A DNA stretch of 64,000 nucleotides, taken from IMG/VR virus record IMGVR_UViG_3300026549_001031; one strand, given 5' to 3'. The stretch is from a virus (taxonomy: Duplodnaviria; Heunggongvirae; Uroviricota; Caudoviricetes). Under the pieces are notes generated by a model. It was given only the letters and a program-made list of their open reading frames with translations. It searched no databases and was not told the origin of the DNA. Made by a program: the position numbers and the translations under genes. Shown here piece by piece: positions 37,045 to 55,045 of this stretch (its first letter is position 1; every line of letters starts with the position of its first letter).

Positions 37045-39108
37045 GTGGCTAAAAAGAAGGGTAGCAGAGGCATGAAGCGTCTGCGTGACGAACAACAGGT
37101 TAGACAGAGACCTGGAGTCATCTTTGGTACAAACGATGAGCAGGGTGCATTAAATGGTATCAATGAGATTGTTGATAACTCCATTGATGAGGCTAGAGAA
37201 GGACATGGAAGTGTCATCAATTATACAGTGGAGCGTGGTGAGGGTGATATCAAGAGTGCAGAGGGTAAACAGGCAGACATCTTCACTATTGAGGATCAGG
37301 GACGTGGATTGCCTATGGATTGGAATGAGGACGAGGAGATGTATGATTGGGAGCTCGCCTTATGTACAATGTATGCATCTGGAAAATACGACAGCGAGCA
37401 GTACACTCAATCATTAGGCTTAAATGGTTTAGGTTTAACATCTATGCAGTACGCTTCATCATTTATGGATGTTTATTCAGCATATGATGATAAACTTCAC
37501 TACATGCACTTTGAGAAAGGTAGACCTGTAGGAGAAATGAAAGTTACACCTTTACCTGAAGAGTACAAAGGAAAGACAGGCACTAGAATTAGATTTCAGC
37601 CTGACGTAGAAGTATTTCCTGCATTGAGACATAAAGATATACTTCCTGAAATTATTCTTATTTCATTAAGAAAACAGGCTATGCAGATCGCAGGTTTAAC
37701 TATCAACTTTACTCATTACAGTTACAATCATACAGTAACCTTATGTTACAATGGTGGTATCATTGAGTACATTGATAGTTTAACAGATAAGCTTATGCTT
37801 AATAAGACTGTTTATTTTGAGGACAGTGCAGTTGGTACAGATGATCCTGTGGCAATGCCAGAGGAATACACTGTAAATATGAAGATGGCATTTAACTTCT
37901 CAAGAGGACTTGGAGAGAATGGAAACTCCATTGGTGTAATTGAGATCTATCATAACTCATCTCATATGTTCGAGGGTGGAACAACAGTGCAGGGTTTTGA
38001 AAAAGGAATCACACAGGCATTTACAGATGTGGCTAAGGCAATGGGTAAAATTGGTAAGTCAGAGAGATTTGTTTACAGTGATATTGCTGATATCATGCTG
38101 TGTGTTTGTATGACAGGTGCTCCTGGTTTTAGGACATCATTTAAGAACCAGACAAAGGGAGCAATTACAAATCCATTTATTGGTAAAGCATTTGCACAAT
38201 TCGTCTACGATAAAATGAGATACTGGCTTGAGCAAAATCAGACAGTTGCAGGTAAGATTGTGAATGAGGTAGTTACTAATAAGAAAGCACGTGAAGAGGG
38301 TGCAGAGGTTAGTAAGAAAGTCATTAACAAGTTATCCAAAGCAGTTTCGTTTGGAAATAAACCTAAGGATTTCAAGGATTGCTCTACTAAAATTATTCGT
38401 GACAGAGAGCTCTACATCGTGGAAGGACGTTCAGCATTGGGTTCAGTTAAGTTAGCATGTAATCCTAAGTTTCAGGCAGTATTGCCTTTACGTGGTAAAC
38501 CTATTAACTGCCTCAAAGAAAAACTTTCACGCGTACTGAATAATGAAGTAATCACTGATTTATACAGAGTATTACAGTGTGGAATTGAAGCAAAGAGTGA
38601 TTATATTGATAACTTACCTAAGTTTGATATTCTCAAGCTTAACTGGGGTAAGATAATCATTTGTACTGATGCAGACGTGGATGGTATGCATATCAGATGT
38701 TTGTTGATACTTATGTTCTTAATTCTGTCACCATCTCTTATTAAGTATGGTAAGGTTTATATTGCAGAGACTCCTTTGTTTGAGATCAGTTGGAAAAAAG
38801 AAAAGAGATCAAGATTTGCATTTAACGACGCTGAAAAAGAAGCAGTGCTCAATGACTTATATGCACTTGGCGCTAACGATAAGGATATTACAGTACAGAG
38901 ATCAAAAGGACTTGGTGAGAATGACCCTGAAATGATGTCTGAATCTACAATGAATCCTTTAACAAGACGTCTGGTTCCTGTGGAGTATCCTGATGGAGGG
39001 GATGAGCAGATGATGCATGATTTATTAAATGCATTACTTGGTGATGACATTGAGTCACGTAGAGAATTGATTGAGCAGTACTTTGAAATGATTGACGAGG
39101 CTGAATAA
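37045..39108 (+). CDS. gyrB: Type IIA DNA topoisomerase subunit B (GyrB/ParE-like)
   Basis: VRQRPG, EIVDNSIDEA, DQGRGLP, SLGLNGLG, TOPRIM EGRSA / PLRGK / DADVDG, KGLGE. Confidence 0.93.
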   Translation: MAKKKGSRGMKRLRDEQQVRQRPGVIFGTNDEQGALNGINEIVDNSIDEAREGHGSVINYTVERGEGDIKSAEGKQADIFTIEDQGRGLPMDWNEDEEMYDWELALCTMYASGKYDSEQYTQSLGLNGLGLTSMQYASSFMDVYSAYDDKLHYMHFEKGRPVGEMKVTPLPEEYKGKTGTRIRFQPDVEVFPALRHKDILPEIILISLRKQAMQIAGLTINFTHYSYNHTVTLCYNGGIIEYIDSLTDKLMLNKTVYFEDSAVGTDDPVAMPEEYTVNMKMAFNFSRGLGENGNSIGVIEIYHNSSHMFEGGTTVQGFEKGITQAFTDVAKAMGKIGKSERFVYSDIADIMLCVCMTGAPGFRTSFKNQTKGAITNPFIGKAFAQFVYDKMRYWLEQNQTVAGKIVNEVVTNKKAREEGAEVSKKVINKLSKAVSFGNKPKDFKDCSTKIIRDRELYIVEGRSALGSVKLACNPKFQAVLPLRGKPINCLKEKLSRVLNNEVITDLYRVLQCGIEAKSDYIDNLPKFDILKLNWGKIIICTDADVDGMHIRCLLILMFLILSPSLIKYGKVYIAETPLFEISWKKEKRSRFAFNDAEKEAVLNDLYALGANDKDITVQRSKGLGENDPEMMSESTMNPLTRRLVPVEYPDGGDEQMMHDLLNALLGDDIESRRELIEQYFEMIDEAE

Positions 39109-40947: not shown

Positions 40948-41871
40948 TTGAAAATTTTAGCAAAGGCAGCTGCAACTAAAGAGCAGTTACAGGGTAAGGT
41001 AGATGCTAAGGCATCTGGAATTGAAATTCAACTATTATCAGAGTTGGTGGATGGAAAGGTAGGACAGTATCATTTTGCTGATGAGGTCTTTGACCTTGAT
41101 ATGATAAAGCAATATGATGTATATGTGGTACATGCACCAATCTTGTCAATGTATGGTTTATCTGATGTTAACATTGAGGATATGACTAATACACAGGATT
41201 TTAAGTTGATTGACCAGATATTTTATATTGCAAACACTATAGGGGAGTATCATAACAGAAGGACAATTATTGTTGTGCACTCTGAAATGTCAAGGGATAA
41301 AATGATTGGACTCGGTGATACATGGAAAACATTAATGAATTCTGTAGGTTGCTTATTGATGAAGTATCCTTACACTGAAATGGCAATTGAGAACATTACA
41401 CCTTTGAGAAATGCACATTCAAATCCTTTGTGGCTGTCAAATAATTTCAAGTTTGACAATGTAGTGATGGCACGTGAGTTAAGAAAGCAACTTAGGACAG
41501 ATAGAGTAGGTACAGTGTTGGATTTATGCCATGCACGAATTACAGAAATGTACATGAAAGCAATTTATGATGTACTTGGGGATGAATGTGAGGACTATTC
41601 ACTTGATGCATATTTTAGGGAAAATGCAGATGTGATTAAATTGATACATGCGGCTGATATGAAGGGCGAAGGATTTGGAAAGGGTAAGCATGGAACACCT
41701 TTTGAGGACACACCAGAGAGCATTGCTCAATTAAGAAAGTTCATTGAATTGTATAGGAAATACGATTACAGTTGCTTGGTTACACTTGAGGTAGCAGAGA
41801 CAGACTTTATCAAGAGTGATGGGTACATACAGTCAAATGAATTATTACTTAGGGAACTAAAGAGAAAATAG
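40948..41871 (+). CDS. Xylose-isomerase-like TIM barrel (AP endonuclease 2 / sugar-phosphate isomerase superfamily)
   Basis: VHAP, AIEN, VLDLCHA, IHAAD, H.P, TLEV metal-binding pattern; TTG start after AGGAGG. Confidence 0.75.
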   Translation: MKILAKAAATKEQLQGKVDAKASGIEIQLLSELVDGKVGQYHFADEVFDLDMIKQYDVYVVHAPILSMYGLSDVNIEDMTNTQDFKLIDQIFYIANTIGEYHNRRTIIVVHSEMSRDKMIGLGDTWKTLMNSVGCLLMKYPYTEMAIENITPLRNAHSNPLWLSNNFKFDNVVMARELRKQLRTDRVGTVLDLCHARITEMYMKAIYDVLGDECEDYSLDAYFRENADVIKLIHAADMKGEGFGKGKHGTPFEDTPESIAQLRKFIELYRKYDYSCLVTLEVAETDFIKSDGYIQSNELLLRELKRK

Positions 41872-42096: not shown

Positions 42097-44388
42097 ATGA
42101 ATTTGAATAGGCTTATCTTGGCAGAATATATGCCATACGCTAAGGTAACTCTGATAAGCAGAGCAATTCCGAGAATTGATGGTTTCAAACCTGTACAGAG
42201 GCGTATTGTTTATACGATGAACAATATGGGGTTACTTAAGGGAGGTAGAGCAAAATCTCAACGTATCAATGGTCAGGTAATGGCATATCACCCTCATGGT
42301 GATAGCAGTATTTATGAGGCAGCAGTATTGATGACTACAGGTTATGAAGGATTGAACCTGCCTTATATTGAAAGTAAGGGATCATTTGGTAAGGTTTACT
42401 CACGTGACCTGAAATATTCTGCACCTCGATATACAGAGATGAAACTTGCACCAATCGCAGGAGAATTATTTGATGGCATCAATGAAAATGCAGTTGATAT
42501 GGTTGATAACTTTGACAATACATTGAAAGAGCCTAAAATACTTCCTGTTAAATTTCCTAACATTCTGGTAAACACAAGTGCAGGTGTGGCAGTAGGGTTT
42601 AGCTGTTATATTCCTTCATTCTCACTCAAAGGTGTTTGTGAGTCTACGATTGGAATTATCAACGGCACTATTGATTCACCTGATAAACTTGCAGATGTAA
42701 TTGGTAATCCTGAGTTTACAACTGGTGGGTACTTACACTCAAGTAGAGAAAAGCTTGTAAATTTGTGTAAGACAGGTAAAGGCACTTTCATGATCAGTGG
42801 AGATGTAGAAATCTACTCTGATAGAATTGTAATTACAGAGATTCCTTATTGTACTACAGCAGAAGCAATCATGGAGGATCTTGAGGCAGCAGTTAAGGAA
42901 AAGAGGATCAATGGAATTAAAGACATTCGTGATGAAATTGGTCTTGCCGGTTTAAGATTAGTTGTCGAGGTAAAGAGTGGGTATAACTCTAGAGAGGTTC
43001 TGCAGGAGGTTTGTAGACTGACTAAACTGCGTACAACAATTTCATTTAGAACTCGTGTGGTTGTAGATGAGCGTTGTAAAGAGATGGGAATTTATGACCT
43101 GTTGCAGTATTGGATTGAGAACAGACAGGAGCAGATTAGGAGAGTCAGAGAGTTTAGAGCTAACAAGCAGAAAACAGAGGCTCACTTACTTGAGGCTTGG
43201 GAGAAAATCTTTAATAACCTGCCTGAAGTAGTTCATATGATCAGTAGTAATACAGAGGATAATGCGCGTGCAATTCTGATGAGCAAATATGGTTTAGATG
43301 AGTTGCAGACAGATTATCTGATGGACATGAGAATTAGACTTATCACAAAAGATAGAGCACAGAAGTCAATTAACAAGCTTAATGATTTGAGAGCTAGCAT
43401 TGCTGAATTAGAGAGCATCTGCAGTGATAAAAATAAGAGATACAAGATTATTATTGAAGAGCAGGAAGAAATTTTAAGAAAGTACTCTAAAGAAAGCAAG
43501 ACAAAGATGGCAGTTGAGTTAAGCGAGGAAGTTTTGAAAGCTAAGAAGACTGAAATTAGTGACGAGCAGACAGTAGTAATTGTAACTGATACAGGTTATA
43601 TTAGAAGATTAACCTCTCTGAAAGACCTTACTGGTACATATGAATCAAAGAATGGAGACAAGGAGGTTATGAGGTTTAACATTAAGAATAACCAGCATAT
43701 CCTTATCTTCGATAGGTTTGGTACAGTTCATAAGGTGCTTGTGGATGATATTGATGCAAGTTCAAGAGCAAATATGACAGATAAGATTAACGAGATTGCA
43801 GGTATTGAAAAGATTTCAGACATTATCTGGATTGATGGTTGTGGTGATTACAAAGGATACTTCAATTTGGTTTATCCGAATGGACGTGGAACAAGAGTAA
43901 TGTACAGTAGTGCATCTGGTAATAGATCACAATACAAGAGCTTATATAAAGAGGTTAAACCTGGTCAGTATTGGGCAACTACAGAGAATAAGTTCTTTAT
44001 GATCACTCATAGAAACAAGGCATCATATTGCGACTTAACTAATCTAGGTCTTTTCAATAATAGATGTGCATTTAAGGTCGCTAGGGTGTCTAGTGGGGAT
44101 TACTTCGTTAAGCTTCATCCTGAAAAAGATGTGCCTAATATTAAAGCCATTGACCTTGACAAATACAAGAAAGATTACACAGTAGCTATTGGTGATGATC
44201 CTTTAGTGTTTGATCCTGAACTTGAGGAAAGAGTTAATGAGGCAATGAGGCAGGAGATTGAGCGTCTGAATAAAAAGCCACCTGAGAAGGGAAGTTTAGA
44301 GGACGTGCAGACAGTTGATGAGGCACTTGGACTTGAGGAAGGTACAGCTGCAGCTCAACAGGCAGAAATTGATAGCATGCAGGAGTAA
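42097..44388 (+). CDS. gyrA: Type IIA DNA topoisomerase subunit A (GyrA/ParC-like, no GyrA box seen)
   Basis: RAIPRIDGFKPVQRR, YHPHGDSSIY, catalytic APRYTE, GVAVG, ITEIPY. Confidence 0.93.
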   Translation: MNLNRLILAEYMPYAKVTLISRAIPRIDGFKPVQRRIVYTMNNMGLLKGGRAKSQRINGQVMAYHPHGDSSIYEAAVLMTTGYEGLNLPYIESKGSFGKVYSRDLKYSAPRYTEMKLAPIAGELFDGINENAVDMVDNFDNTLKEPKILPVKFPNILVNTSAGVAVGFSCYIPSFSLKGVCESTIGIINGTIDSPDKLADVIGNPEFTTGGYLHSSREKLVNLCKTGKGTFMISGDVEIYSDRIVITEIPYCTTAEAIMEDLEAAVKEKRINGIKDIRDEIGLAGLRLVVEVKSGYNSREVLQEVCRLTKLRTTISFRTRVVVDERCKEMGIYDLLQYWIENRQEQIRRVREFRANKQKTEAHLLEAWEKIFNNLPEVVHMISSNTEDNARAILMSKYGLDELQTDYLMDMRIRLITKDRAQKSINKLNDLRASIAELESICSDKNKRYKIIIEEQEEILRKYSKESKTKMAVELSEEVLKAKKTEISDEQTVVIVTDTGYIRRLTSLKDLTGTYESKNGDKEVMRFNIKNNQHILIFDRFGTVHKVLVDDIDASSRANMTDKINEIAGIEKISDIIWIDGCGDYKGYFNLVYPNGRGTRVMYSSASGNRSQYKSLYKEVKPGQYWATTENKFFMITHRNKASYCDLTNLGLFNNRCAFKVARVSSGDYFVKLHPEKDVPNIKAIDLDKYKKDYTVAIGDDPLVFDPELEERVNEAMRQEIERLNKKPPEKGSLEDVQTVDEALGLEEGTAAAQQAEIDSMQE

Positions 44389-44419
44389 TTGAGAGATATA
44401 CATCTTGGAGGAATATTAA

Positions 44420-46000
44420 ATGTGGGATAGAGCAGTAGTACCTCTTGGTATAGAGGAATCTTTAAGAACAATGTTTTCTGCACTACTGACCGGAGGAATT
44501 GACAGAAGTGATCCTGGTAATGCATCGCTTCTGTCAAATAAGTCAAAGACAGCAAGGATTTGTTACTCTAGGTTTGTAGGGAAGTTTACATACAATATCT
44601 TTTATAATAATTATGCTATCTTCTATGAGTTGTTTGTTACATTGGGTTTGCATACTTTCTCTGTTGAACAGGTGAGAGCATTGATGGATACAAATAGAGA
44701 CCTTATTCTTGATAGCCCTTACATTGATAAGAGTAAATATGCTCAGACAATCAATGGAAACATTGCAGATGCTGATGATATACTTGAGGCAATTACAGAG
44801 GACTTAATTGATTGTTTGGTTGAACTTTCACAGATTGAGGTTACAGAGGATGAATTTGGTTCAGCTTGTGAAGTCTACACAGTATGGTATAAGACAGCAT
44901 ATGCTGAATCAATTGCACTTGATATGTCAGCTATTATGTCAGATGCAGGGTTTGATGATAAGCAACCTGGAAAAAGAACAGTGCATTTGCATGGTTTAGA
45001 TGACATGGTTAAGTATTATAATAACAATATGAGAATAATCAAGTCATTGTCAGAAGAGGGAGCAGTAACAAGCACTGTGGTTGACTCTAAATGGTTTGAG
45101 AATGAAATGAAGAATGAAAACCAGAAAGACAATAAGGCACTGTTTCCGATTGGATTACCTGAAATTGATGCAACTGTTGGAGACCTTAGACGTGGCAATA
45201 TGTTAGGTATCATGGGACCTCCTAAGGGTGGCAAGACAAGGTTTGCTAACTTCCTTGTAGAAAAAGCTCTCAAGCTTGGATATAATGTTTGTGTCTGGCC
45301 TCTGGAAGGTACAGAGGAAGAATGGTTGTCGATGCAGACATCTTGTTATATGGCAGAGACATCATATAATGAACTTAAATCAGGTAAGAGAGAGGGAATG
45401 ATACGTATATCAAGTGGAGATATACTTGATAAGAAATACTTGAGTTCTAATGAAATGAGAAAGCAGGTAGCAGCGGCTAAAAAGGTGATTGCAACTAGTG
45501 AAAAACAGGGGCGTCTATCATTTATGCATGGTACAGCATATGTGGAGGATATGTTTGATCAGTTGCAGGCTCATTATGATAATGAGAATCCTTTTGATGT
45601 ATTAGTGATTGATCAGTTAGTAAACGTAATGTCACGTACAGGAAAAGGTAAGGTTGAGAGAATTTCTGAAGCATACATGCAGACGAAAAACTTTATTGCA
45701 AATGTGTTACCTAAAGCAGCATTGGGAATTATGCCTTGTCAGTTAAAACAGGAAGTTGTAGACTTCTTAAGGAGAAATCCTGACGAAACAATTGATGTTA
45801 CCGCAGGTGGTGAGACAGCAGAGACAGTTCGAACGCCTGATCAGGTCATTGGTTTATTCTCTTCAAAAGAGGAAAGAGCCAATAACATTATGAAAATTTA
45901 CAGCGTTGCATCTCGACATAATGAGGACTTTCCTGATTTTCAGGCTAAATGCTATTTGGAATGTTGTTTCTTCTTACCTCAAGATGATTCAGCAGCATAG
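44420..46000 (+). CDS. DnaB-like (SF4) replicative helicase
   Basis: IDATVGDLRRGNML, GPPKGGKT, PLEG, VLVIDQL, PCQL. Confidence 0.75.
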   Translation: MWDRAVVPLGIEESLRTMFSALLTGGIDRSDPGNASLLSNKSKTARICYSRFVGKFTYNIFYNNYAIFYELFVTLGLHTFSVEQVRALMDTNRDLILDSPYIDKSKYAQTINGNIADADDILEAITEDLIDCLVELSQIEVTEDEFGSACEVYTVWYKTAYAESIALDMSAIMSDAGFDDKQPGKRTVHLHGLDDMVKYYNNNMRIIKSLSEEGAVTSTVVDSKWFENEMKNENQKDNKALFPIGLPEIDATVGDLRRGNMLGIMGPPKGGKTRFANFLVEKALKLGYNVCVWPLEGTEEEWLSMQTSCYMAETSYNELKSGKREGMIRISSGDILDKKYLSSNEMRKQVAAAKKVIATSEKQGRLSFMHGTAYVEDMFDQLQAHYDNENPFDVLVIDQLVNVMSRTGKGKVERISEAYMQTKNFIANVLPKAALGIMPCQLKQEVVDFLRRNPDETIDVTAGGETAETVRTPDQVIGLFSSKEERANNIMKIYSVASRHNEDFPDFQAKCYLECCFFLPQDDSAA

Positions 46001-46056
46001 AAAAAGAGATAGCAGATTAGAAAAGAATTAGTAGTTAAAATAAAGAGATGGTACAG

Positions 46057-46140
46057 CTTAAATATGAATGGATCAGTGTGGAACTCATATCACACTGATT
46101 CGTTGATGTTTAAGAGTATATGAGGACAATGAGTTCTACA
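46057..46140 (+). other. Long intergenic hairpin with loop complementary to downstream sequence
   Basis: 24-bp stem 46057-46080 / 46091-46114 (one mismatch, G-U pairs); 46077-46088 complementary to 46129-46140. Confidence 0.5.
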
Positions 46141-46202
46141 TAGTATTCAATATAAAAATAAATTAAATTTTATTTATAGTTTTTGAAAGGGAGATACTGG
46201 AC

Positions 46203-46880
46203 ATGGCAAATGTTTCAAATGAGCTATTGGAAATGTTGACTAACTTTACAGTGTGTGAGATAGGTGCTGGTGCTTTACAGGGTATTACATATGCATTATT
46301 GCTAAAGGACAATCCGAAAGATGTTGAGGCATATAAAAGATATCTTAATATTGTGCAGGAGAGTCAAAAGTGTGGATTTAGGAGCAATGAGCTGTTTAGA
46401 GTGTACGAGATAGGAAATGGATATATCATGGACATGGATATCAGTACAGTCAAAACAATTACAGCAATCATGGCAAAAAAGATTTCTGATGAGAAAGCAG
46501 GTAAGAAAATTCCTACAAACCTGATTGGAGATAGACCAGAGGAAAGAAGAAAGAAGGACATTGCAGCTTTAGCTAGATACCTTAAGTCAGAGTATGATAA
46601 GGGTAACACACAATTGGAGTTAGCATTGTTTAGTAGGAACACTACACATAAGATTAGAATAAATGGAAAAGGACCTCGTGGAGAGGCATTGGTAATTGAG
46701 TACAATGCATATGCAATTAGACATTGGGATATCGAGTTACTTAATGAAAAATTGTTAATACCTTGTGGGTTTAGAGTATGCAGGATTCAACCTTGTGAGG
46801 TACTTCCTTCTAAAACAGGGGTATCATTTATGTTTACTCTTGAGGACGTAAGAGATAAAATTGATATGCATAGGTTCTAA
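46203..46880 (+). CDS. Hypothetical protein
   Basis: 225-aa ORF with GGGAG SD. Confidence 0.75.
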   Translation: MANVSNELLEMLTNFTVCEIGAGALQGITYALLLKDNPKDVEAYKRYLNIVQESQKCGFRSNELFRVYEIGNGYIMDMDISTVKTITAIMAKKISDEKAGKKIPTNLIGDRPEERRKKDIAALARYLKSEYDKGNTQLELALFSRNTTHKIRINGKGPRGEALVIEYNAYAIRHWDIELLNEKLLIPCGFRVCRIQPCEVLPSKTGVSFMFTLEDVRDKIDMHRF

Positions 46881-46908
46881 GATGATTTGAATAAGGTAGG
46901 ACAGATAA

Positions 46909-47256
46909 ATGGCAATTGTAATTGGTATAGTACTTATATTTTTATTGTGTCTAGCAATAAAAGCTTTTTTGAATCTTAGAGAAATAAAGAGAGAGTTCAC
47001 TTGTAGTAATTGTGGACATATGTCAGATATATTGGAGTCTGGGTTAAAATGTGATAAATGTCATAGGACTTATGCTAAGACATATAAGAAATGGATATTT
47101 TATTTCACAGCTACAGTGGTGACTTTAGATACCAGACATAATTGGTTTAAGTATAGATACAAAGAAGTAAGAAAATATTTCTTAAGGGAAATAGTAATAA
47201 TCAGTTTATGTATGATAATGCTTGGGGCATTTTTAGTAATACAGTTAGCTAAATGA
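46909..47256 (+). CDS. Small membrane protein with zinc ribbon
   Basis: N- and C-terminal TMs; CSNC and CDKC. Confidence 0.7.
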   Translation: MAIVIGIVLIFLLCLAIKAFLNLREIKREFTCSNCGHMSDILESGLKCDKCHRTYAKTYKKWIFYFTATVVTLDTRHNWFKYRYKEVRKYFLREIVIISLCMIMLGAFLVIQLAK

Positions 47257-47271
47257 AAGGACAGTTAAAGA

Positions 47272-48210
47272 ATGAAATTAACAGTTAGGCAACCAATAGC
47301 AAAAAATGATGGAACATGTGAATTAAGAAATGTATCAGTAACAGACATTGTAGTTAATGGATATGCACTTATGGCTATTGATGGTTCTACATCTAATTCA
47401 GGTGTGGCTATTATGAGACAGCATGATTGTGCAATATTATACATTATTTCAGCTGAAAGAGACAAAAAGAATGAGTCACCTGTCAGGTACAAAATTGAGT
47501 TGAAACGTGCAATTAAGGATATACTTGCACGAAATAGATTTATTGATCAGATATACTATGAGGAACCTGTCATTGCTAATTTGAGTGCAGTATCTAATTT
47601 GTTTATGTTAAGGGCTTTCATTGAGGAAATGATCATTGAAAATGAGCCTGACTTTGACTACTTACAGCACTATGAAGTTCCTAATATGCGTTGGAAAAAA
47701 TTATTCCTGGAGCCTGAAAAAGTACCTCAGTTCACAGATAATCAGAAAGAAGCAGTTAGAAATAAATTGATTACAGGGCTTCCTTTCTTAAGTGTCATCA
47801 CACAAGATGAGGTTGATGCATTATGTATGGGATTTGTATGTTGTCAGACACTAGCAAAGGGTGGTTCTGGTGAGGACATTCAGGCAAAGAAGAAAGCACA
47901 TAGGTTTAAGTATAATATCAAGTTTATTGGTGCCGACGACAATGACTCAATGTTAGTTGAGCTTTGGGACATTTATGATGGACCTGAAAGCATTTTACAG
48001 AATGGCATTAGATTGACAGAGATTGACAGTAAGACAAAGTTTGAACAGCACATATTTGAGACAATGGGCGACGATGATGCTTTGATAATCGTCAAATTTT
48101 CATCTAAACATCACTCAAATCTTGTGCTTGAACATAGAATTGGTAACTTGTCTGCTATGTATGATTATATATACGCAGTTGTTTGGAGAGTTGCAAGGAA
48201 AAGAAATTAG
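47272..48210 (+). CDS. RuvC-like Holliday junction resolvase with C-terminal extension
   Basis: MAIDGSTSNSG, YYEEP, RWKK, QDEVDALCM carry the RuvC D/E/D acidic residues. Confidence 0.75.
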   Translation: MKLTVRQPIAKNDGTCELRNVSVTDIVVNGYALMAIDGSTSNSGVAIMRQHDCAILYIISAERDKKNESPVRYKIELKRAIKDILARNRFIDQIYYEEPVIANLSAVSNLFMLRAFIEEMIIENEPDFDYLQHYEVPNMRWKKLFLEPEKVPQFTDNQKEAVRNKLITGLPFLSVITQDEVDALCMGFVCCQTLAKGGSGEDIQAKKKAHRFKYNIKFIGADDNDSMLVELWDIYDGPESILQNGIRLTEIDSKTKFEQHIFETMGDDDALIIVKFSSKHHSNLVLEHRIGNLSAMYDYIYAVVWRVARKRN

Positions 48211-48248
48211 CTATACACTATATTAAATTGAAAGGCGGTAGCAAGAAA

Positions 48249-48827
48249 ATGAGTAAGTGTGAATGGTGTGGTAATGAGCAAGGAATATTAAATCAGTACA
48301 CAGATGCAATTGGTGAGACACATAGTATTTGTAAGGATTGCCTTAGTAAAGTAAATGATTGCATTTGTAGAAAGTGTGGTACACCTACAGATTCTGAAAT
48401 GATGATCAATGGACTTTGTACAAATTGTGTTCAGGCAGACATGATGGAGAAGAGCAAGAAAAGAGAAGAAATCAGCATGGGGCTTCTTGACATTGATGGT
48501 GAGTGCTCAGCAGACACAGAAATGTCAGAGGCAGATTATGATGCTTGGGTTACATCAAGACCTATTTATGGACCTAAGGATTTGGCAAAGAGTTTAATTG
48601 CTAGAAAGATGTGGATCATGGTCAAATTAAATGCATCAGGTATTTATGATGAAAAGACCATTGGAGATTATTATAAAGACATCGAAACACTTCTCGACAG
48701 ATGCTTGAGTAAGTTGATTGGAAATAAGTGTCAGCTGGTAATTGGAAATAACGCTGAAAGAAGACGGCAGATCAGAGAAGGAAATGTAATTGACTTCGAG
48801 AATGAAGTTTATATTTTAGCAAAGTAG
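48249..48827 (+). CDS. Zinc-finger protein
   Basis: CEWC, CKDC, CRKC, CTNC; start refined to ATG 48249. Confidence 0.7.
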   Translation: MSKCEWCGNEQGILNQYTDAIGETHSICKDCLSKVNDCICRKCGTPTDSEMMINGLCTNCVQADMMEKSKKREEISMGLLDIDGECSADTEMSEADYDAWVTSRPIYGPKDLAKSLIARKMWIMVKLNASGIYDEKTIGDYYKDIETLLDRCLSKLIGNKCQLVIGNNAERRRQIREGNVIDFENEVYILAK

Positions 48828-48840
48828 GGGATAATACAGG

Positions 48841-50007
48841 ATGATTAATGAGAATACATTGAAGAGTTTGAATAAATATGCATTTGGAGCAGATGTGGAC
48901 TCGCTTGAGTCTTTTATAATTGATTGTAAACAGGCTTCAGTACTTGCAGACTACAGAAAGTATGGTGACTCATACATGAGATTGAGTAAGTTGTTTAAGG
49001 AAATCAAGTCTGAATCAAAGGCTTTTAGTGATTCTACATCTATTGTTGATGAGATACCTATGGGGGATTTTGATTTCATATTTGATGAGCATAGGAACAA
49101 GAGGCTTCATAGGGTGTATGGTAATCATTTAGAGAACACAGTGGACTTCAAGAATAGTATCAATAATCATCCTGAAAAAGTAGTAGACCTGGTTGGAATG
49201 GTAAATGTACTTGGTGTTGATATAATTTGCACATATGTTTATGGGAACTTATACAAGATATATGCAGTTGGAGCAGATAGTTTGTATTTGGATCTCACAG
49301 AAGAATTAAGTGGTGCAGCCCCTAAAAGATTAGAGGGCATTAAGAAATATATGCTAGCACAGTTAAGTGGTGTGGCAATATCAAGTTTAAGAAATAACAA
49401 ACATGGAAATTGTATTACAGATACAATTAGGTGTTTAAGATGTCATAGGAATTACGATTCTATTTCTTTGGTATTTAAGAATATGTACCTTGAGGCTGAC
49501 GATGATGACACTGAGTTACCTTATGATAATCAATGGGATAAATTGGAGTACATGAGAGGAATGGGGTTAACAGTTCCTAATCATGGTTTAGTCAGAGGGG
49601 TGGACAGTGAGACAGTAGGAAGTGCATTTAATGCATTAGATGACTTCTTTGTAAAGAGTAAAAGTGCTGATTCATTAGAAGCAGGGCTTGATAAAGATGG
49701 CTATATCATCAAAGTAAATGATTTGACCAGTGATGAAATTTTAGAGGAATCAGTAATATACATATCCGATTGCATAGATTCACAGGAAGTTTTTAAGGCT
49801 AAAGTTAAGGGCATAAAGTTGTGTAATGGAGAATATGGAATTGAGCAGGTAGCAAGTATAGTTGAGCATAGATGTAATGTAAGATGCACAGTTGATACAG
49901 TTTTTATAAATGATATATACAGAGTAGAAGAACAAGGGATAACAGTTGGAAAACCAATAAGCTTTAGAGTAATTGATAATGTGGCAGAGATATTCATAGG
50001 AAATTAA
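48841..50007 (+). CDS. Degenerate NAD+-dependent DNA ligase N-half (adenylation + OB domains), catalytic Lys absent
   Basis: NVLGVDIICTYVYGNL resembles KIDGLSISLTYENGKL; QWDKLEYMRGMGL; DGYIIKVND (motif IV); OB-like C-terminus. Confidence 0.6.
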   Translation: MINENTLKSLNKYAFGADVDSLESFIIDCKQASVLADYRKYGDSYMRLSKLFKEIKSESKAFSDSTSIVDEIPMGDFDFIFDEHRNKRLHRVYGNHLENTVDFKNSINNHPEKVVDLVGMVNVLGVDIICTYVYGNLYKIYAVGADSLYLDLTEELSGAAPKRLEGIKKYMLAQLSGVAISSLRNNKHGNCITDTIRCLRCHRNYDSISLVFKNMYLEADDDDTELPYDNQWDKLEYMRGMGLTVPNHGLVRGVDSETVGSAFNALDDFFVKSKSADSLEAGLDKDGYIIKVNDLTSDEILEESVIYISDCIDSQEVFKAKVKGIKLCNGEYGIEQVASIVEHRCNVRCTVDTVFINDIYRVEEQGITVGKPISFRVIDNVAEIFIGN

Positions 50008-50114
50008 GTAAAAGACATGCAGAACGTCCTGTCAATTATATAAAAATAAAATTAGTTTAATTTTTGTCTTGAAATTGGACTAGTTTTGAAAGGATTCATG
50101 CGGAGGAAAGTGTA

Positions 50115-51695
50115 ATGGACAAAACAAATATGTTTGATGATGCTCTTCTAGATGATATGGACTTAGCAGATGAATTTGAGGACATGGATTTAGAGGAGGA
50201 AAGTGAAGATGATGCAGGGACAAATGAGGAGGAGTTACTAGACGACTTTGATATTGAGGATGATGAGCCACTGGCAAAGGCACTTGAGAACAGTGATGAA
50301 AGTGATACAGTATCTGAAATTGAGGAAAATGCACAGGATTATTCAGATGGTACACCTGTAGAAGATGACTTACATGAAGAAGATGAGGAAGAGACACTTC
50401 ATGAGGAATCTAGTTTTATAAGTGACACAGGTAATATTGTGGTGCAGGACACTGATGATAATGGTAATGGCTTCTCATTGGTGTATATACCTATTGAGAA
50501 TATTGCCATTACACAGAGAATTAGAAAGATTGGCTCTGTAGAGGGTTTAGTTAAGTCAATTAAAAGTACTGGACTTCTGAAACCTATTGTTGTAGCACCT
50601 ACTTTGACAGATAACCTTTATGTATTATTGGATGGCTATCAGAGAATACAGGCTTGTGCACGAGCAGGAAAAACGGTCATGCCTTGTATTGTAAACAACA
50701 GAGTAAATACACCTGAAATACCTATTTTGGAGGCTATGTACAATCACTCAAAGAAGTACTCAATTAAAGAGCAGGTTGACTACATTGATTACTTGGAGAA
50801 TCAGAAGGGTATTATGAATCCTTCAATGATTGAGTATTTGTTACAGATGAATAGTGGTGATTACACTAAGTTAAAAGATATACTTGATGATAATGACGAC
50901 GACATTGTAACTAAAATGTTTGATGGCGTATATGATATTGCAACTGCATTCAAGAAATTGGAGCAGAGGCGTAAGAAAGAATCACAGGAAGAGAAAGAAA
51001 ATAAGAAGGCAGCTAAGGTTTATGAGAATGAAGAGACCTCTGGAGCAGCTCAAATTGAGGGTTCAGGCGAGGAGGCTGAAGGAGAGGCACTCAGTGAGGA
51101 ACAGATTAAGTCATTGGCAGTAAACCTTGACAACCTGGATGATGAGGTTGAGAATGAATCCTTAAATGACATGGTTGAAAAAGACAATAACATTGAAGGA
51201 TTTGAACCTCATAAGCAAAAAACAGGTGAACGTGAGTTTATTGATCCTGCTATTAAGAAATCAGCAATGGCACGTGATAATTTCACTTGTAGATGCTGCA
51301 ATAGGGGTGGTGAGCAGTATGTAGATATTCTTGATGCACACCATGTAGTTCCTGTATTTCTTGGTGGTGTAGACAGTTTGGATAATACAGTAATGCTTTG
51401 TGTAGCTTGTCATAGACTTGTACACTTGTATTCTACAGGAGATTTGAACATTGACCCTGCTTTGAGTAAAGACAACTATGGTGAATTGACAGAGGATCAA
51501 CAGAAAAGATATGAGAACAAAGAGATTTTTGAGGATGAAAAGAGAAGATTCAAGAAGATCATTGTTTTTGGAAGTAGAATTAGACATGGCATTGCTGATA
51601 AAGGAATGAACAGAGAGAAATATAAGAAAGAGCATCCTAATACAGGAATTGGTCGTAGAAAACCTGGAGCTAAGACACCTCAAGATTATGCATAA
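50115..51695 (+). CDS. ParB/Srx-like domain fused to HNH endonuclease, acidic N-terminus
   Basis: LVKSIKSTGLLKPIVV...LLDGYQRIQA; RDNFTCRCC...AHHVVP...GG...DNTVMLCVACHRLVH. Confidence 0.85.
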   Translation: MDKTNMFDDALLDDMDLADEFEDMDLEEESEDDAGTNEEELLDDFDIEDDEPLAKALENSDESDTVSEIEENAQDYSDGTPVEDDLHEEDEEETLHEESSFISDTGNIVVQDTDDNGNGFSLVYIPIENIAITQRIRKIGSVEGLVKSIKSTGLLKPIVVAPTLTDNLYVLLDGYQRIQACARAGKTVMPCIVNNRVNTPEIPILEAMYNHSKKYSIKEQVDYIDYLENQKGIMNPSMIEYLLQMNSGDYTKLKDILDDNDDDIVTKMFDGVYDIATAFKKLEQRRKKESQEEKENKKAAKVYENEETSGAAQIEGSGEEAEGEALSEEQIKSLAVNLDNLDDEVENESLNDMVEKDNNIEGFEPHKQKTGEREFIDPAIKKSAMARDNFTCRCCNRGGEQYVDILDAHHVVPVFLGGVDSLDNTVMLCVACHRLVHLYSTGDLNIDPALSKDNYGELTEDQQKRYENKEIFEDEKRRFKKIIVFGSRIRHGIADKGMNREKYKKEHPNTGIGRRKPGAKTPQDYA

Positions 51696-51722
51696 CATAG
51701 AGAAAATAGGAGGACATAGAAC

Positions 51723-51950
51723 ATGTTTAGGAAAAACAATGAAAACGAAGAAAATGAAGTAAGTGGCGGACAAGTATTTGGTTACATACTTATTGGTTTA
51801 GCAGTTGTAATTATAATTGCATTTGTTATCTTTGTAGGAATAAAGATGGCAACAGGTGGTGGTAAGAAAGATGCAAAGCCACAACAGGTTGCCAGCGTAG
51901 AGGTTTCAACATTGGCATTGGAAGATGAGGAAAAGCCTGTGGTTGAATAA
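51723..51950 (+). CDS. Small single-pass membrane protein
   Basis: One long hydrophobic helix; AGGAGG SD. Confidence 0.7.
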   Translation: MFRKNNENEENEVSGGQVFGYILIGLAVVIIIAFVIFVGIKMATGGGKKDAKPQQVASVEVSTLALEDEEKPVVE

Positions 51951-52004
51951 GGAACAGACATAACTAAGTAAGGAAGAGTAAAGAAAGAGCAGGAGCATAG
52001 ATAG

Positions 52005-52991
52005 ATGGGAGTATCATTTAGTGAGGCAGTAAAAAATGAATTAGTGTCAGAGGAAACACTAAAGGTAATACCTAAAAGATGTTTATGTGGCAGTGAGTTA
52101 GAGTTTTCAGACTCACTAAAGGAATTGAAATGTACAGATAAGAATTGTAAGCAGACAGTAATTGCTAGAGTTTGTACATTTTGTAAAAAATTGGGCATAC
52201 CTTTAAGTTATGAGGATGTAAGTTATATTGTAAATAACATTGGAATTGTAACACCTTATCAAATTATGATGCTTGATGAATTAAATAAAGAGAACAGTTC
52301 TTTATTGGGAATGGTCTACAACATTGATGAGGTGCTGCAAGTTATTGAAAATATAAAACAGAATGAATATCTTTTGAACTATGTAGTTGAATTATGTGGC
52401 ATTGAAGATATTGCTAATATAGCAGAGAAAATGTTTTATGGTTTTAAAAGTTTAGATGAGGCATACAACGAAATTGAGATTGGACAGGTAACATTTGTAA
52501 ATGAACGTTTAGGAATTAAGAAGCCTGACAGTAGTATTATTTCAGTAAGGATTTATAATGAATTGTTAGACAGTAAGGAAGAGCTTTTGTTTGGAGAGAC
52601 ACAGTTCAAAATAAAAGAGTATGACTCCCCTAGATTGAATATAGCATTTTGTGATAATACAATACCATTTATAAATAAATCTGAACTTATAGAGGAATGG
52701 AATTACAAGTATGGTTGCATATTTAATCAAGTGACAATCATTGGAGAGAATACAGATATACTTGTGAAAAATGTAGATGGAGCAAGTAGTAAGGTTAGGG
52801 CAGCTAGGACAATAAATGATGAGTACACAGCTGAATTGATGAATAATACTGGTATGGAGTTAAGAGACATAGGAAAATATGAAGAGGGCAAGCTAAAACC
52901 TATTGGTAGCAAGTTGTTTGTTGAGTCATTAGCAAACATAGAGAGTAGGTTGCAGTATATGATAGATAAGGGATACACAATAAAGAGTTGA
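52005..52991 (+). CDS. NAD+-dependent DNA ligase C-half-like protein (Zn finger, HhH-like, BRCT-like)
   Basis: PKRCLCGSEL...CTDKNC; CGIEDIANIAEKM; ENTDILV...ASSKVRAA resembles BRCT KKTDYLV...GSKLAKA. Confidence 0.6.
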   Translation: MGVSFSEAVKNELVSEETLKVIPKRCLCGSELEFSDSLKELKCTDKNCKQTVIARVCTFCKKLGIPLSYEDVSYIVNNIGIVTPYQIMMLDELNKENSSLLGMVYNIDEVLQVIENIKQNEYLLNYVVELCGIEDIANIAEKMFYGFKSLDEAYNEIEIGQVTFVNERLGIKKPDSSIISVRIYNELLDSKEELLFGETQFKIKEYDSPRLNIAFCDNTIPFINKSELIEEWNYKYGCIFNQVTIIGENTDILVKNVDGASSKVRAARTINDEYTAELMNNTGMELRDIGKYEEGKLKPIGSKLFVESLANIESRLQYMIDKGYTIKS

Positions 52992-53021
52992 GAGGGCAAG
53001 GAAAATTGGAGTGATTAGACA

Positions 53022-53468
53022 GTGTACAATTTAATTGGTAAGTGCTATAAAGATTTAGACATATATGAGTTTAAGGTTGAACATGAAGGAAACATAGAGT
53101 ATTTAAGTAGAGACAGGGTAATTGAATTGGCATCAGCAGGAGAAATTGAGGGTGTGCATACAGTTACTGATATAGATGGCAAGATAAAATTGTTAGTGGA
53201 CAAAGGGTTAAGTAGTTTAGACACTTGTGTTAATGAAGATAGACATAAAATGAAAATAATAGGCAGGATGGTAAATTCAGACGAGAGATGTATAGGCTAT
53301 GTGGTAGTTGGAGACAACAAGAAAGAATACAGACTTAGCATTGGTAAGGTTTGGGAAATGACCATTAATCATAATATAGATGGTGTGAAAGCAGTTATTA
53401 AAAATGATAGAAAGTATTTATTGAGTATTGACCCAGGGTTTTTAAGTAACCTGCCTAAAATAAAATAA
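53022..53468 (+). CDS. Protein made only of two copies of the ~70-aa module
   Basis: MYNLIGK...LSSLD and MKIIGRMV...RCIGYVV...FLSNLP; GTG start. Confidence 0.75.
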   Translation: MYNLIGKCYKDLDIYEFKVEHEGNIEYLSRDRVIELASAGEIEGVHTVTDIDGKIKLLVDKGLSSLDTCVNEDRHKMKIIGRMVNSDERCIGYVVVGDNKKEYRLSIGKVWEMTINHNIDGVKAVIKNDRKYLLSIDPGFLSNLPKIK

Positions 53469-53482
53469 GGTAAGACATCAAT

Positions 53483-53511
53483 TTGACAAATAACTAGTTG
53501 TGTGTTATAAT
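53483..53511 (+). promoter_or_regulatory. Consensus sigmaA promoter with extended -10
   Basis: TTGACA-17 bp-TATAAT with TG at the extended position. Confidence 0.85.
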
Positions 53512-53564
53512 ATAAGAGTAATAAGGAGATAGTTTGAACAATGATGTACACAGTTGAACGAAAG

Positions 53565-53618
53565 AATAGACCCAATAGACTAGTTAATCTTTAGGCTATT
53601 GGGTTTATTGCTTTATTT
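53565..53618 (+). terminator. Hairpin/terminator in the infC leader
   Basis: AATAGACCCAATAG / CTATTGGGTTTATT followed by GCTTTATTT. Confidence 0.55.
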
Positions 53619-53636
53619 GGAACATTGTGGTATAAT
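53608..53636 (+). promoter_or_regulatory. Second sigmaA-type promoter upstream of infC
   Basis: TTGCTT-17 bp-TATAAT with TG extended -10. Confidence 0.7.
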
Positions 53637-53679
53637 AAAGAAAAAATAAAAAATAAAAATAAAAAGGAGAGCAATTTAA

Positions 53680-54189
53680 TTGAAAACAAAAGACAGACCT
53701 GTAGAAATTAAGTCATCAGTAGTGAATGTAATCATGGAGGATGGAAAGATCAATCAGATGGTTACAAAAGAGGCACAGAAGTTAGCAGAAGAGCAGGGTT
53801 TAGATTTGATTCTGCTTAACAATTCAGGGGATGTGCCTGTAGTTAAAATTGGAGATTACAACAAATATATCTATGAGAAAAACAAGAAAGCAAAAGAGAG
53901 TAAAAAGAGACAGAAAGCAAGTTCTCAGACACTGAAAGAGATTCAGATCAGTGACTCAATTGCAGAGCATGACTTGGAAATCAAGGCTAAATCAGTGGAC
54001 AGGTTATTATCAGAAGGACATAAGGTTCAGCTGTCAATCAGGTACAAAGGAAGAGCGATCGCCTTTATTAAAGGTGGTATTGAAAAGCTTGAGCACTTGG
54101 AATCAAGAGTGACAGTGAATCATAAGATAGATAAAGCAGCTAAAATTAGTGGTAATCAGGTTACAATGATGATATCACCCACTAAGTAA
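53680..54189 (+). CDS. infC: Translation initiation factor IF-3 homologue
   Basis: EAQKLAEEQGLDLIL, PVVKIGDYNKYIYE, KEIQISDSIAEHDLEIK, GHKVQLSIRYKGR, M.ISP. Confidence 0.9.
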   Translation: MKTKDRPVEIKSSVVNVIMEDGKINQMVTKEAQKLAEEQGLDLILLNNSGDVPVVKIGDYNKYIYEKNKKAKESKKRQKASSQTLKEIQISDSIAEHDLEIKAKSVDRLLSEGHKVQLSIRYKGRAIAFIKGGIEKLEHLESRVTVNHKIDKAAKISGNQVTMMISPTK

Positions 54190-54213
54190 GCATGGACATG
54201 GAGGTGTTTAACT

Positions 54214-54858
54214 TTGACACAGAAACAAAAAGACATTTCACTTGTAGTTGGTGTGATAATTGCACTGATTATAATTGGATTGACAGGTAGGTACATAACT
54301 AATCATAGTGGAGGAACAACTGCAGACAATGTAGTTGAGAATACACAGTCTGGGAAAGATGATAGCATTACAATCAATGGAAGAGACAGTGATGCAAGTT
54401 CAGTAGATCCTAAGATTAAGGCTAAATTGGACACTGATAAAAATATGAGTGCTCAGGGAATTGAACAGCAGAGCATTTCGGAAGAGACAGAGGATGATGC
54501 AGATGTACAGACAGTTGAAAATGATGTGTACATAGTTAAACAGTCGGGTGATGCATTAGCAAGTTTAGTTGGTACTTGGGCAACTAACAATGGAGACATT
54601 GTTAAAATTGTTGAGAGTAATGGAACTTGGAGCTACACAGCATACAAAATTGATAGCAACAAGACTTATAGCAATAAGTTGGTTTGTACTAGCAAAAAAT
54701 TAAAGTTTAAGACAAACAAGAATAATAAGAAGTACAAGGAATATAGAATTGTAACATTACCTAGATCAGTTGAGAACAAGGTAACTGGGAAGAAATCAAC
54801 AGTGTTTACGATTGAGAGTACTAAAGGAAAAGCAATAATGCTTACTAAAGGTGAATAG
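54214..54858 (+). CDS. Membrane-anchored extracellular protein
   Basis: N-terminal TM, polar linker, beta-rich C-terminal domain (LVGTWA); TTG start after GGAGG. Confidence 0.75.
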   Translation: MTQKQKDISLVVGVIIALIIIGLTGRYITNHSGGTTADNVVENTQSGKDDSITINGRDSDASSVDPKIKAKLDTDKNMSAQGIEQQSISEETEDDADVQTVENDVYIVKQSGDALASLVGTWATNNGDIVKIVESNGTWSYTAYKIDSNKTYSNKLVCTSKKLKFKTNKNNKKYKEYRIVTLPRSVENKVTGKKSTVFTIESTKGKAIMLTKGE

Positions 54859-54867
54859 GTACTTTTG

Positions 54868-54909
54868 TATAAGGTGATCAAGCAGTGAGTTTGATTACCT
54901 TATATTTTT
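54868..54909 (+). terminator. Rho-independent terminator
   Basis: TATAAGGTGATCAA / TTGATTACCTTATA then TTTTT. Confidence 0.7.
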
Positions 54910-55045
54910 GATCTTTTTGAGATCAGATAGTTTAAGCATTGGGTGGTGCATAATTAAAATTAAGTATTTTGGTATGTCTCAAAGATGAGCACTTACATGA
55001 TATAATAATGAAATTATTATTTTATTTGATTGGAGGATTTTGATT

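Follow-up and report, generated by a model that had tools for sequence, protein, structure and literature searches.

A split, apparently non-catalytic derivative of NAD-dependent DNA ligase flanking a ParB-HNH nuclease gene

The NAD-dependent DNA ligase of bacteria, LigA (EC 6.5.1.2), is built from six domains in the order Ia, nucleotidyltransferase (NTase, the adenylation domain), oligonucleotide-binding (OB) fold, Cys4 zinc finger, helix-hairpin-helix (HhH) region and BRCT, as seen in the E. coli enzyme (PDB 2OWO, 5TT5). In T5-like phages (Demerecviridae) it is standard to find an NAD-dependent ligase encoded by two genes, annotated as subunits A and B: A holds the Ia-like, NTase and OB domains, and B the zinc finger, HhH and BRCT domains. 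For the ligase of Escherichia phage GreteKellenberger, Pfam recognises the NTase and OB domains in subunit A and the HhH and BRCT domains in subunit B, and the heterodimeric ligase of phage PR1 is present in the PDB on nicked DNA (9HU3, 9I5I). What use is left for such a fold once ligation is gone? The question is raised by a locus in a 64,000-nucleotide stretch of Caudoviricetes DNA (IMG/VR record IMGVR_UViG_3300026549_001031; this whole stretch is called the window here), in which two open reading frames (ORFs), for a LigN-like chain (P0001) and a LigC-like chain (P0002), flank the gene of a ParB_N-HNH nuclease. Between them the two polypeptides present the LigA domain order from Ia to BRCT. 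The pair is quite likely non-catalytic and under selection. With a probability of roughly 0.55, we read the two ORFs as the two chains of a non-catalytic LigA paralogue, an accessory factor descended from an active split ligase and working with the ParB-HNH nuclease.

How does this locus compare with the described systems? The split point in LigA is that of the T5-like ligases and, as those are active enzymes, the split itself is not new. The differences lie elsewhere. The T5-like subunit A belongs to an enzyme that keeps K115, D117, R136, E173, Y225 and K314, all of which are lost in P0001; the T5-like ligase genes are mostly adjacent (in Vibrio phage Athena two small ORFs separate them), whereas here a ParB-HNH gene and a gene for a small transmembrane (TM) protein intervene; and, unlike the T5-like case, a second, full-length LigA coexists. 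With bacterial LigA the pair shares domain order, fold, Cys4 finger and the structural glycines G118, G128, G172 and G286, but it differs in being two chains, in apparently having no nucleophile or pocket for adenosine monophosphate (AMP), in having lost the DNA-contact arginines of the NTase and OB domains, and in falling below the Pfam and TIGRFAM thresholds. To our knowledge, pseudoenzymes derived from DNA ligases are rare, and the clearest case is the poxvirus processivity factor. That factor, A20/A22 (PDB 8Q3R, 8HG1), is likewise a case of a viral replication apparatus that retains the ligase fold but not the chemistry, but its domain is of the ATP-ligase lineage, is one domain of a larger protein, and has neither a zinc finger/HhH/BRCT partner nor a link to a nuclease; the likeness is at the level of shared fold only and is weak (E about 1e-7 to 1e-8). 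In the literature searched, whose coverage was limited, no description of a LigA-derived pseudoenzyme was found. What appears to be new is the combination: catalysis lost across a large family under selection, a nuclease gene fixed between the halves, and a coexisting full-length LigA.

Two chains with the domains of LigA

Searched as a single sequence, P0001 has no match in Pfam, PHROG, NCBIfam, PADLOC or the PDB, it does not match PF01653 or TIGR00575 at their curated family thresholds, and a search of the ESM Atlas gave no usable match; its LigA origin is revealed only by family profiles and by structure. An exhaustive phmmer search with P0001 gathered 69 relatives, nearly all of 360-400 residues, from which 59 full-length cluster representatives (17-41% identity) make up the family profile and alignment used throughout. 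This profile matches LigA adenylation domains with E 4e-14, and hhalign places the family on a canonical LigA alignment with a probability of 98.7% and E 2.7e-16, spanning domain Ia to the OB fold in 330 columns. The AlphaFold (AF2) model of P0001 is confident (predicted local distance difference test score, pLDDT, 93.6; predicted template modelling score 0.91) and finds NAD-dependent ligases in Foldseek with E about 1e-17. Compared with LigA it gives a VIA Z of 17-18 and a root-mean-square deviation of 3.0 Å over about 215 residues of the NTase domain, with residues 70-387 aligning with 70-390 of 2OWO and the match continuing through the OB domain; T5-like/PR1 ligase chains reach Z 15 and ATP-dependent ligases only Z 11-12. 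One LigN homologue occurs as two overlapping ORFs (L011, 956-2135) on a 2.4-kb contig of 1.5x coverage, probably through a sequencing frameshift and not as a pseudogene.

The C half is recognised more directly, P0002 matching PHROG 3869, 'NAD-dependent DNA ligase', with E 1.4e-7 at profile positions 381-640 of 656. With its 21-member family, hhalign covers the zinc finger, HhH and BRCT of LigA at E 1.9e-5. On TIGR00575 the protein scores 18.5 bits against a cut-off of 444. Its AF2 model (pLDDT 87.5) matches residues 359-586 of E. coli LigA 2OWO with Z 11.5 and subunit B of the PR1 phage ligase with Z 9.9, while residues 208-328 resemble the BRCT domains of RFC1, TopBP1 and Rad4 (Z 6-7). Four zinc-finger cysteines, C26, C28, C43 and C48, are invariant in the 21 homologues and align with the LigA zinc finger; the family also has many conserved basic positions and strongly conserved motifs of its own, NERLGIK, LKPIGS and TPYQ. 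A warning for annotation follows from the PHROG match: its transfer would label the C half alone 'NAD-dependent DNA ligase', and the real ligase lies elsewhere.

Catalytic residues, selection and a second ligase

Residues are numbered as in E. coli LigA, and their mapping agreed between hidden Markov model, hhalign and MAFFT L-INS-i alignments (Table 1). In P0001, K115, D117, R136, E173, Y225 and K314 are all changed, and the pocket residues among them (K115, R136, E173, Y225, K314) are likewise replaced in 56 of the 59 family representatives. Motif I, KxDG, reads N122-V-L-G125 in P0001, the nucleophilic lysine being absent from 54 of 56 members of the dead family; motif III, EVRGE, reads Q174-L-S-G-V178, and motif IV is retained as D286-G-x-x-x-K291. 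For domain Ia, where the helical alignment is uncertain, the residues that bind nicotinamide mononucleotide (NMN) give a mixed picture, with a Y35 equivalent in 42 of 59 representatives, D32 and D36 not conserved, and Y22 and H23 in gaps. Judged by its aligned residues, the N half is without both the lysine nucleophile and the AMP pocket. In the same alignment the tabulated residues, K290 excepted, are intact in E. coli LigA, in two T5-like A subunits and in the full-length LigA of the clade. A basal group of the family itself (P0083, P0094, P0096 and the copy at locus L012) has them intact too, save that motif I there is K-x-N-G and K290 is Ala. Within an otherwise active-looking basal subclade, P0084 and P0086 have D and S, respectively, at K115 and have also lost E173, which suggests a second, independent loss of catalysis.

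Table 1. Catalytic and neighbouring positions of LigA and their equivalents in the N half
E. coli LigA	P0001	Dead-family consensus
K115	N122	N
D117	L124	not conserved
G118	G125	kept
R136	V143	I/V
E173	V178	K
Y225 (adenine-stacking)	K213	N/D/T
D285-G286	D286-G287	N/D, then G
K290	K291	K/R
K314 (motif V Lys)	I308	N/I/D

Could the protein still be a ligase or nucleotidyltransferase, with a relocated nucleophile or another cofactor? The retained motif IV would be compatible with this, as would K56, found in 93-95% of the family, and Lys or Arg at the K290 position in about 64%. However, the family has lost K115, R136, E173, Y225 and K314 jointly, with various residues in their place, K56 falls in the Ia/NTase linker where it matches the ordinary 'LExxxP' segment of LigA, and a canonical LigA coexists. 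Because the five pocket residues were lost in a coordinated way, a relocated nucleophile is unlikely, and hidden activity of any such kind seems very improbable.

Are the genes then simply decaying? Ratios of nonsynonymous to synonymous substitution (dN/dS) were obtained by the Nei-Gojobori method against L008, a 464,735-bp human-gut contig with about 92% DNA identity over 43854-54959. They are 0.083 for LigN and 0.136 for LigC, similar to those of the neighbouring RuvC-like (0.105), ParB-HNH (0.089) and IF3 (0.128) genes; the DnaB-like gene gives 0.018. Both ligase-derived genes are under purifying selection and are not decaying. Over long distances identity is 28-32% for LigN and 40-47% for LigC, against 63-67% for the helicase and ParB-HNH and 54-64% for the RuvC-like protein; this faster divergence of both halves fits a loss of catalytic constraint with retention of the fold.

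A complete ligase is encoded elsewhere. The 268-kb IMG/VR contig that carries the related locus L001 (contig G001) also encodes a 751-residue LigA (PF01653 E 7.7e-52; L002, 1018-3273) with KLDG, TRGNG and LRGE motifs, zinc finger, HhH and BRCT, and an N-terminal extension of about 100 residues that is absent from E. coli LigA; an ATP-dependent ligase (PF01068) was not found in G001. Homologues of this LigA are abundant on contigs of 350-630 kb, and one of their clusters, P0188, agrees with the LigN and LigC clusters P0007 and P0016 in contig count (4) and in longest contig (451,431 bp). The canonical LigA P0098 has 27 of 110 short words in common with a stretch of the window's own genome about 76.6 kb past the end of the window, so that a full-length LigA is apparently present there too. 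Within the 64-kb window itself, tblastn with the canonical LigA of the clade found no second ligase. An 88-kb fragment (G002, 39% complete) has no canonical LigA, which is uninformative given its incompleteness.

Much of this had been anticipated in an earlier note on the window, prepared by a model from the letters and a list of ORFs. It described two intact ORFs flanking a ParB-HNH gene, and they exist as described. It assigned the ORF at 48841 to the Ia, adenylation and OB domains of LigA, on which profile, hhalign, Foldseek and AF2 now agree, and the ORF at 52005 to the remaining zinc finger, HhH and BRCT, as do PHROG 3869, hhalign and the AF2 model. Its motif readings (NVLG, QLSGV, motif IV kept, motif V lysine absent) were all correct, and the losses of R136 and Y225 can be added to them. 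Its view that the genes are not decaying is supported by the dN/dS values, and the intact ligase elsewhere for which it proposed looking was found on a related element and, going by the word match, apparently on the window's own genome.

The nuclease and its gene neighbourhood

The protein encoded between the two halves has a long acidic tail at its N terminus and a basic one at its C terminus, carries a ParB/Srx-type DGYQR box, and has its HNH residues intact (C392/C395/C429/C432, H409-H410, N424, H433, H437). It is the best-conserved product of the cassette, with 52-67% identity in six relatives and a nearly invariant core, and would seem to be a core enzyme of such elements. Phage genes are often split by HNH genes, and an HNH ORF exactly between two halves of a ligase might mean a gene broken by a mobile homing endonuclease and now decaying. 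But dN/dS is 0.08-0.14, 59 and 21 diverged homologues still have the ORFs at full length, the models are confident, and ParB-HNH, at 63-67% identity, is better conserved than any other gene of the block and keeps its synteny at every depth, contrary to what a mobile selfish insert would show. A relic of this kind is hardly credible; it and neutral decay are rejected on the dN/dS and synteny data, and ParB-HNH belongs to the core genes and is no homing endonuclease newly inserted into a ligase.

The order LigN then ParB-HNH is found in all seven loci (the window, L001, L007, L008, L009, L010 and L012), and the full order LigN, ParB-HNH, small TM protein, LigC in five of the seven. L007 has one extra ORF of 152 residues ahead of LigC. 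In L010, a 400-kb relative, ParB-HNH is followed by a 692-residue secreted- or lipoprotein-like ORF (8163-10241) where the others have the TM protein and LigC, and in L012 by a 94-residue TM protein and a lipoprotein-like ORF; LigC was not found within the stretch examined for L010, nor within the 5.8 kb examined for L012. The LigN copy of L012 (L012N, 30-1235) is a stand-alone N half that scores 64.8 bits on PF01653 and E 3e-28 on TIGR00575, with K-x-N-G in motif I and R136, E173, Y225 and K314 kept. As an active-looking LigN here adjoins ParB-HNH, the adjacency is older than the loss of catalysis. In a quick FastTree phylogeny with long branches, the L012 group is basal within the N-half family and the whole family lies beside the T5-like A subunits; this tree, too, points to K115 having been lost a second time in P0084/P0086.

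What kind of element carries the cassette? The window has 35% G+C and a strong GC skew, and all its credible genes are on the + strand. Homologues of the cassette genes occur on contigs of 268-547 kb, several of them from human-gut metagenomes, which makes the element a giant replicon of phage- or plasmid-like type. No match for the locus or for P0002 was found by megablast and tblastn in 50,697 isolated phage genomes. The cassette lies within a replication/recombination module (Table 2), in which an AP-endonuclease-2-like gene separates the GyrB-like and GyrA-like topoisomerase genes; farther upstream are ParA-like, HerA/VirB4-like and FtsK-like ATPases and TelA. The zinc-ribbon-like ORF is syntenic in all relatives. 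From LigN to the 148-residue ORF the intergenic gaps are 27-107 nt, a consensus scan of 48912-54867 found no strong terminator, and a predicted promoter precedes IF3; consensus scans thus suggest that LigN through the 148-residue ORF may form one transcription unit.

Table 2. Features of the ligase-derived cassette and its surroundings in the window
Feature	Position	Strand	Remarks
GyrB-like	37045-39108	+	replication/recombination module
AP-endonuclease-2-like (Endo IV-like TIM barrel)	40948-41871	+	
GyrA/topoisomerase II-like	42097-44388	+	
DnaB-like helicase	44420-46000	+	
RuvC-like resolvase	47272-48210	+	phrog_159 E 6e-6; conserved upstream neighbour by synteny
Zinc-ribbon-like ORF, 214 residues	48183-48827	+	weak DZR_2; directly upstream of LigN-like gene
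LigN-like chain P0001, 388 residues	48841-50007	+	Ia-like, NTase, OB; nucleophile and AMP-contact residues lost
ParB_N-HNH nuclease, 526 residues	50115-51695	+	PF01844 E 2.7e-8, PF02195 E 7.7e-7
Small single-pass membrane protein, 75 residues	51723-51950	+	same place in L001, L007, L008, L009
LigC-like chain P0002, 328 residues	52005-52991	+	Cys4 zinc finger, HhH region, BRCT
DUF3892-like ORF, 148 residues	53022-53468	+	PF13031 E 3.6e-5 (weak); co-conserved; last gene before consensus promoter
Sigma-70 promoter, predicted	53483-53511	+	perfect TTGACA-17-TATAAT with TG (extended -10); consensus match only
IF3	53680-54189	+	directly downstream of predicted sigma-70 promoter

What the pair may do

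How could a split ligase have come to this state? The ancestor would have been an active split ligase already paired with a ParB-HNH nuclease, as L012 still looks. A full-length LigA would then have taken over sealing, and the split copy would have lost catalysis but been retained in an accessory role for the nuclease and the replication machinery. The two chains would have different tasks. The C chain, with its zinc finger, HhH region and conserved basic residues, has most likely kept its ability to bind DNA, duplex or nicked. In the N chain, the arginines that contact DNA phosphates in LigA (R200, R218, R277, R308, R333 and R379) are not conserved across the dead family, Asp or Glu predominating at positions 218 and 379; neither overall charge nor isoelectric point distinguishes the dead ligases from active ones. 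Conservation in this family is highest over its first ~60 residues (G16 100%, E23 96%, K56 93%, S59 95%), which suggests a new interaction surface. Because the arginines are lost and this segment is the most conserved, the N chain is most likely a protein-docking module. Together, the pair would recognise or hold DNA cut or nicked by the HNH enzyme, without sealing it, with the possible effect of positioning or restraining the nuclease, or of handing the DNA over to replication or recombination. Such a specific role in holding nicks or partnering the nuclease is offered tentatively, as a possibility with the odds against it.

Might the pair instead be a replisome scaffold unrelated to the nuclease, its dead ligase fold bridging replication proteins like the middle domain of poxvirus A20/A22? 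The P0001 model does match the vaccinia and monkeypox virus (MPXV) holoenzyme chains 8Q3R_A and 8HG1_C (E about 2e-7) as well as processivity factors of poxviruses in BFVD (E about 1e-8), the cassette adjoins helicase, topoisomerase and RuvC genes, and the conserved first ~60 residues are a non-catalytic helical region, as a scaffold would have it. However, the poxvirus matches are far weaker than those to LigA (Z 18 for NAD-dependent against 11-12 for ATP-dependent ligases) and reflect the shared ligase fold, the cassette holds no DNA polymerase gene, and the constant neighbour is ParB-HNH. A scaffold independent of the nuclease is thus unlikely. A somewhat more doubtful proposal is that the pair acts against ligases, as a partner dedicated to ParB-HNH: it would bind the site-specific nicks or cuts made by ParB-HNH and shield them from the full-length LigA of the element and from that of the host. 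If this were true, programmed DNA breaks would persist, priming replication or recombination of a half-megabase element.

The earlier note had seen here an exapted two-chain pseudo-ligase, serving as a nick-sensing clamp or end protector or as a decoy for defences that target ligase or NAD. The first part has stood well: two-chain LigA origin, residue loss, selection, linkage to ParB-HNH and the second LigA fit an exapted pseudo-ligase and not decay. The roles fared worse. For the N half the clamp is weakened by the lack of conservation of its DNA-contact arginines. The decoy, or sponge, against host defences might find some support in the N half evolving, over long distances, at about double the rate of its neighbours, but the nucleotide pocket is dismantled as a whole (K115, R136, E173, Y225, K314 and, on the uncertain alignment of domain Ia, D32/D36), so that NAD would probably not be bindable in the manner of LigA; short-range dN/dS is 0.08 with no sign of positive selection, there are no PADLOC matches, and the site is a replication operon, not a counter-defence island. 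A decoy is therefore improbable, more so than a scaffold or an anti-ligase.

Several points weigh against the preferred reading of a non-catalytic LigA paralogue working with ParB-HNH. The residue mapping comes from sequence and profile alignments at about 15% identity. With its DNA-contact arginines lost, the N chain may not be able to form a LigA-like clamp around a nick. For the C half the hhalign probability is only 78%, and both the TG motif of BRCT and the hairpin glycines of HhH have degenerated. A word match is the ground for placing a canonical LigA on the window's own genome. Binding of the two chains to each other, to DNA or to the nuclease would follow from homology and gene order, and gene order alone is no proof of a functional partnership with ParB-HNH.

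The dead split-ligase family is widespread in gut elements of 0.3-0.6 Mb, and an evolutionary series is evident in it, from an active-looking split form to a dead split form alongside a full-length LigA. Together with the fixed nuclease partner, this series makes the family a tractable system in which to learn what a ligase fold is used for once ligation is gone.

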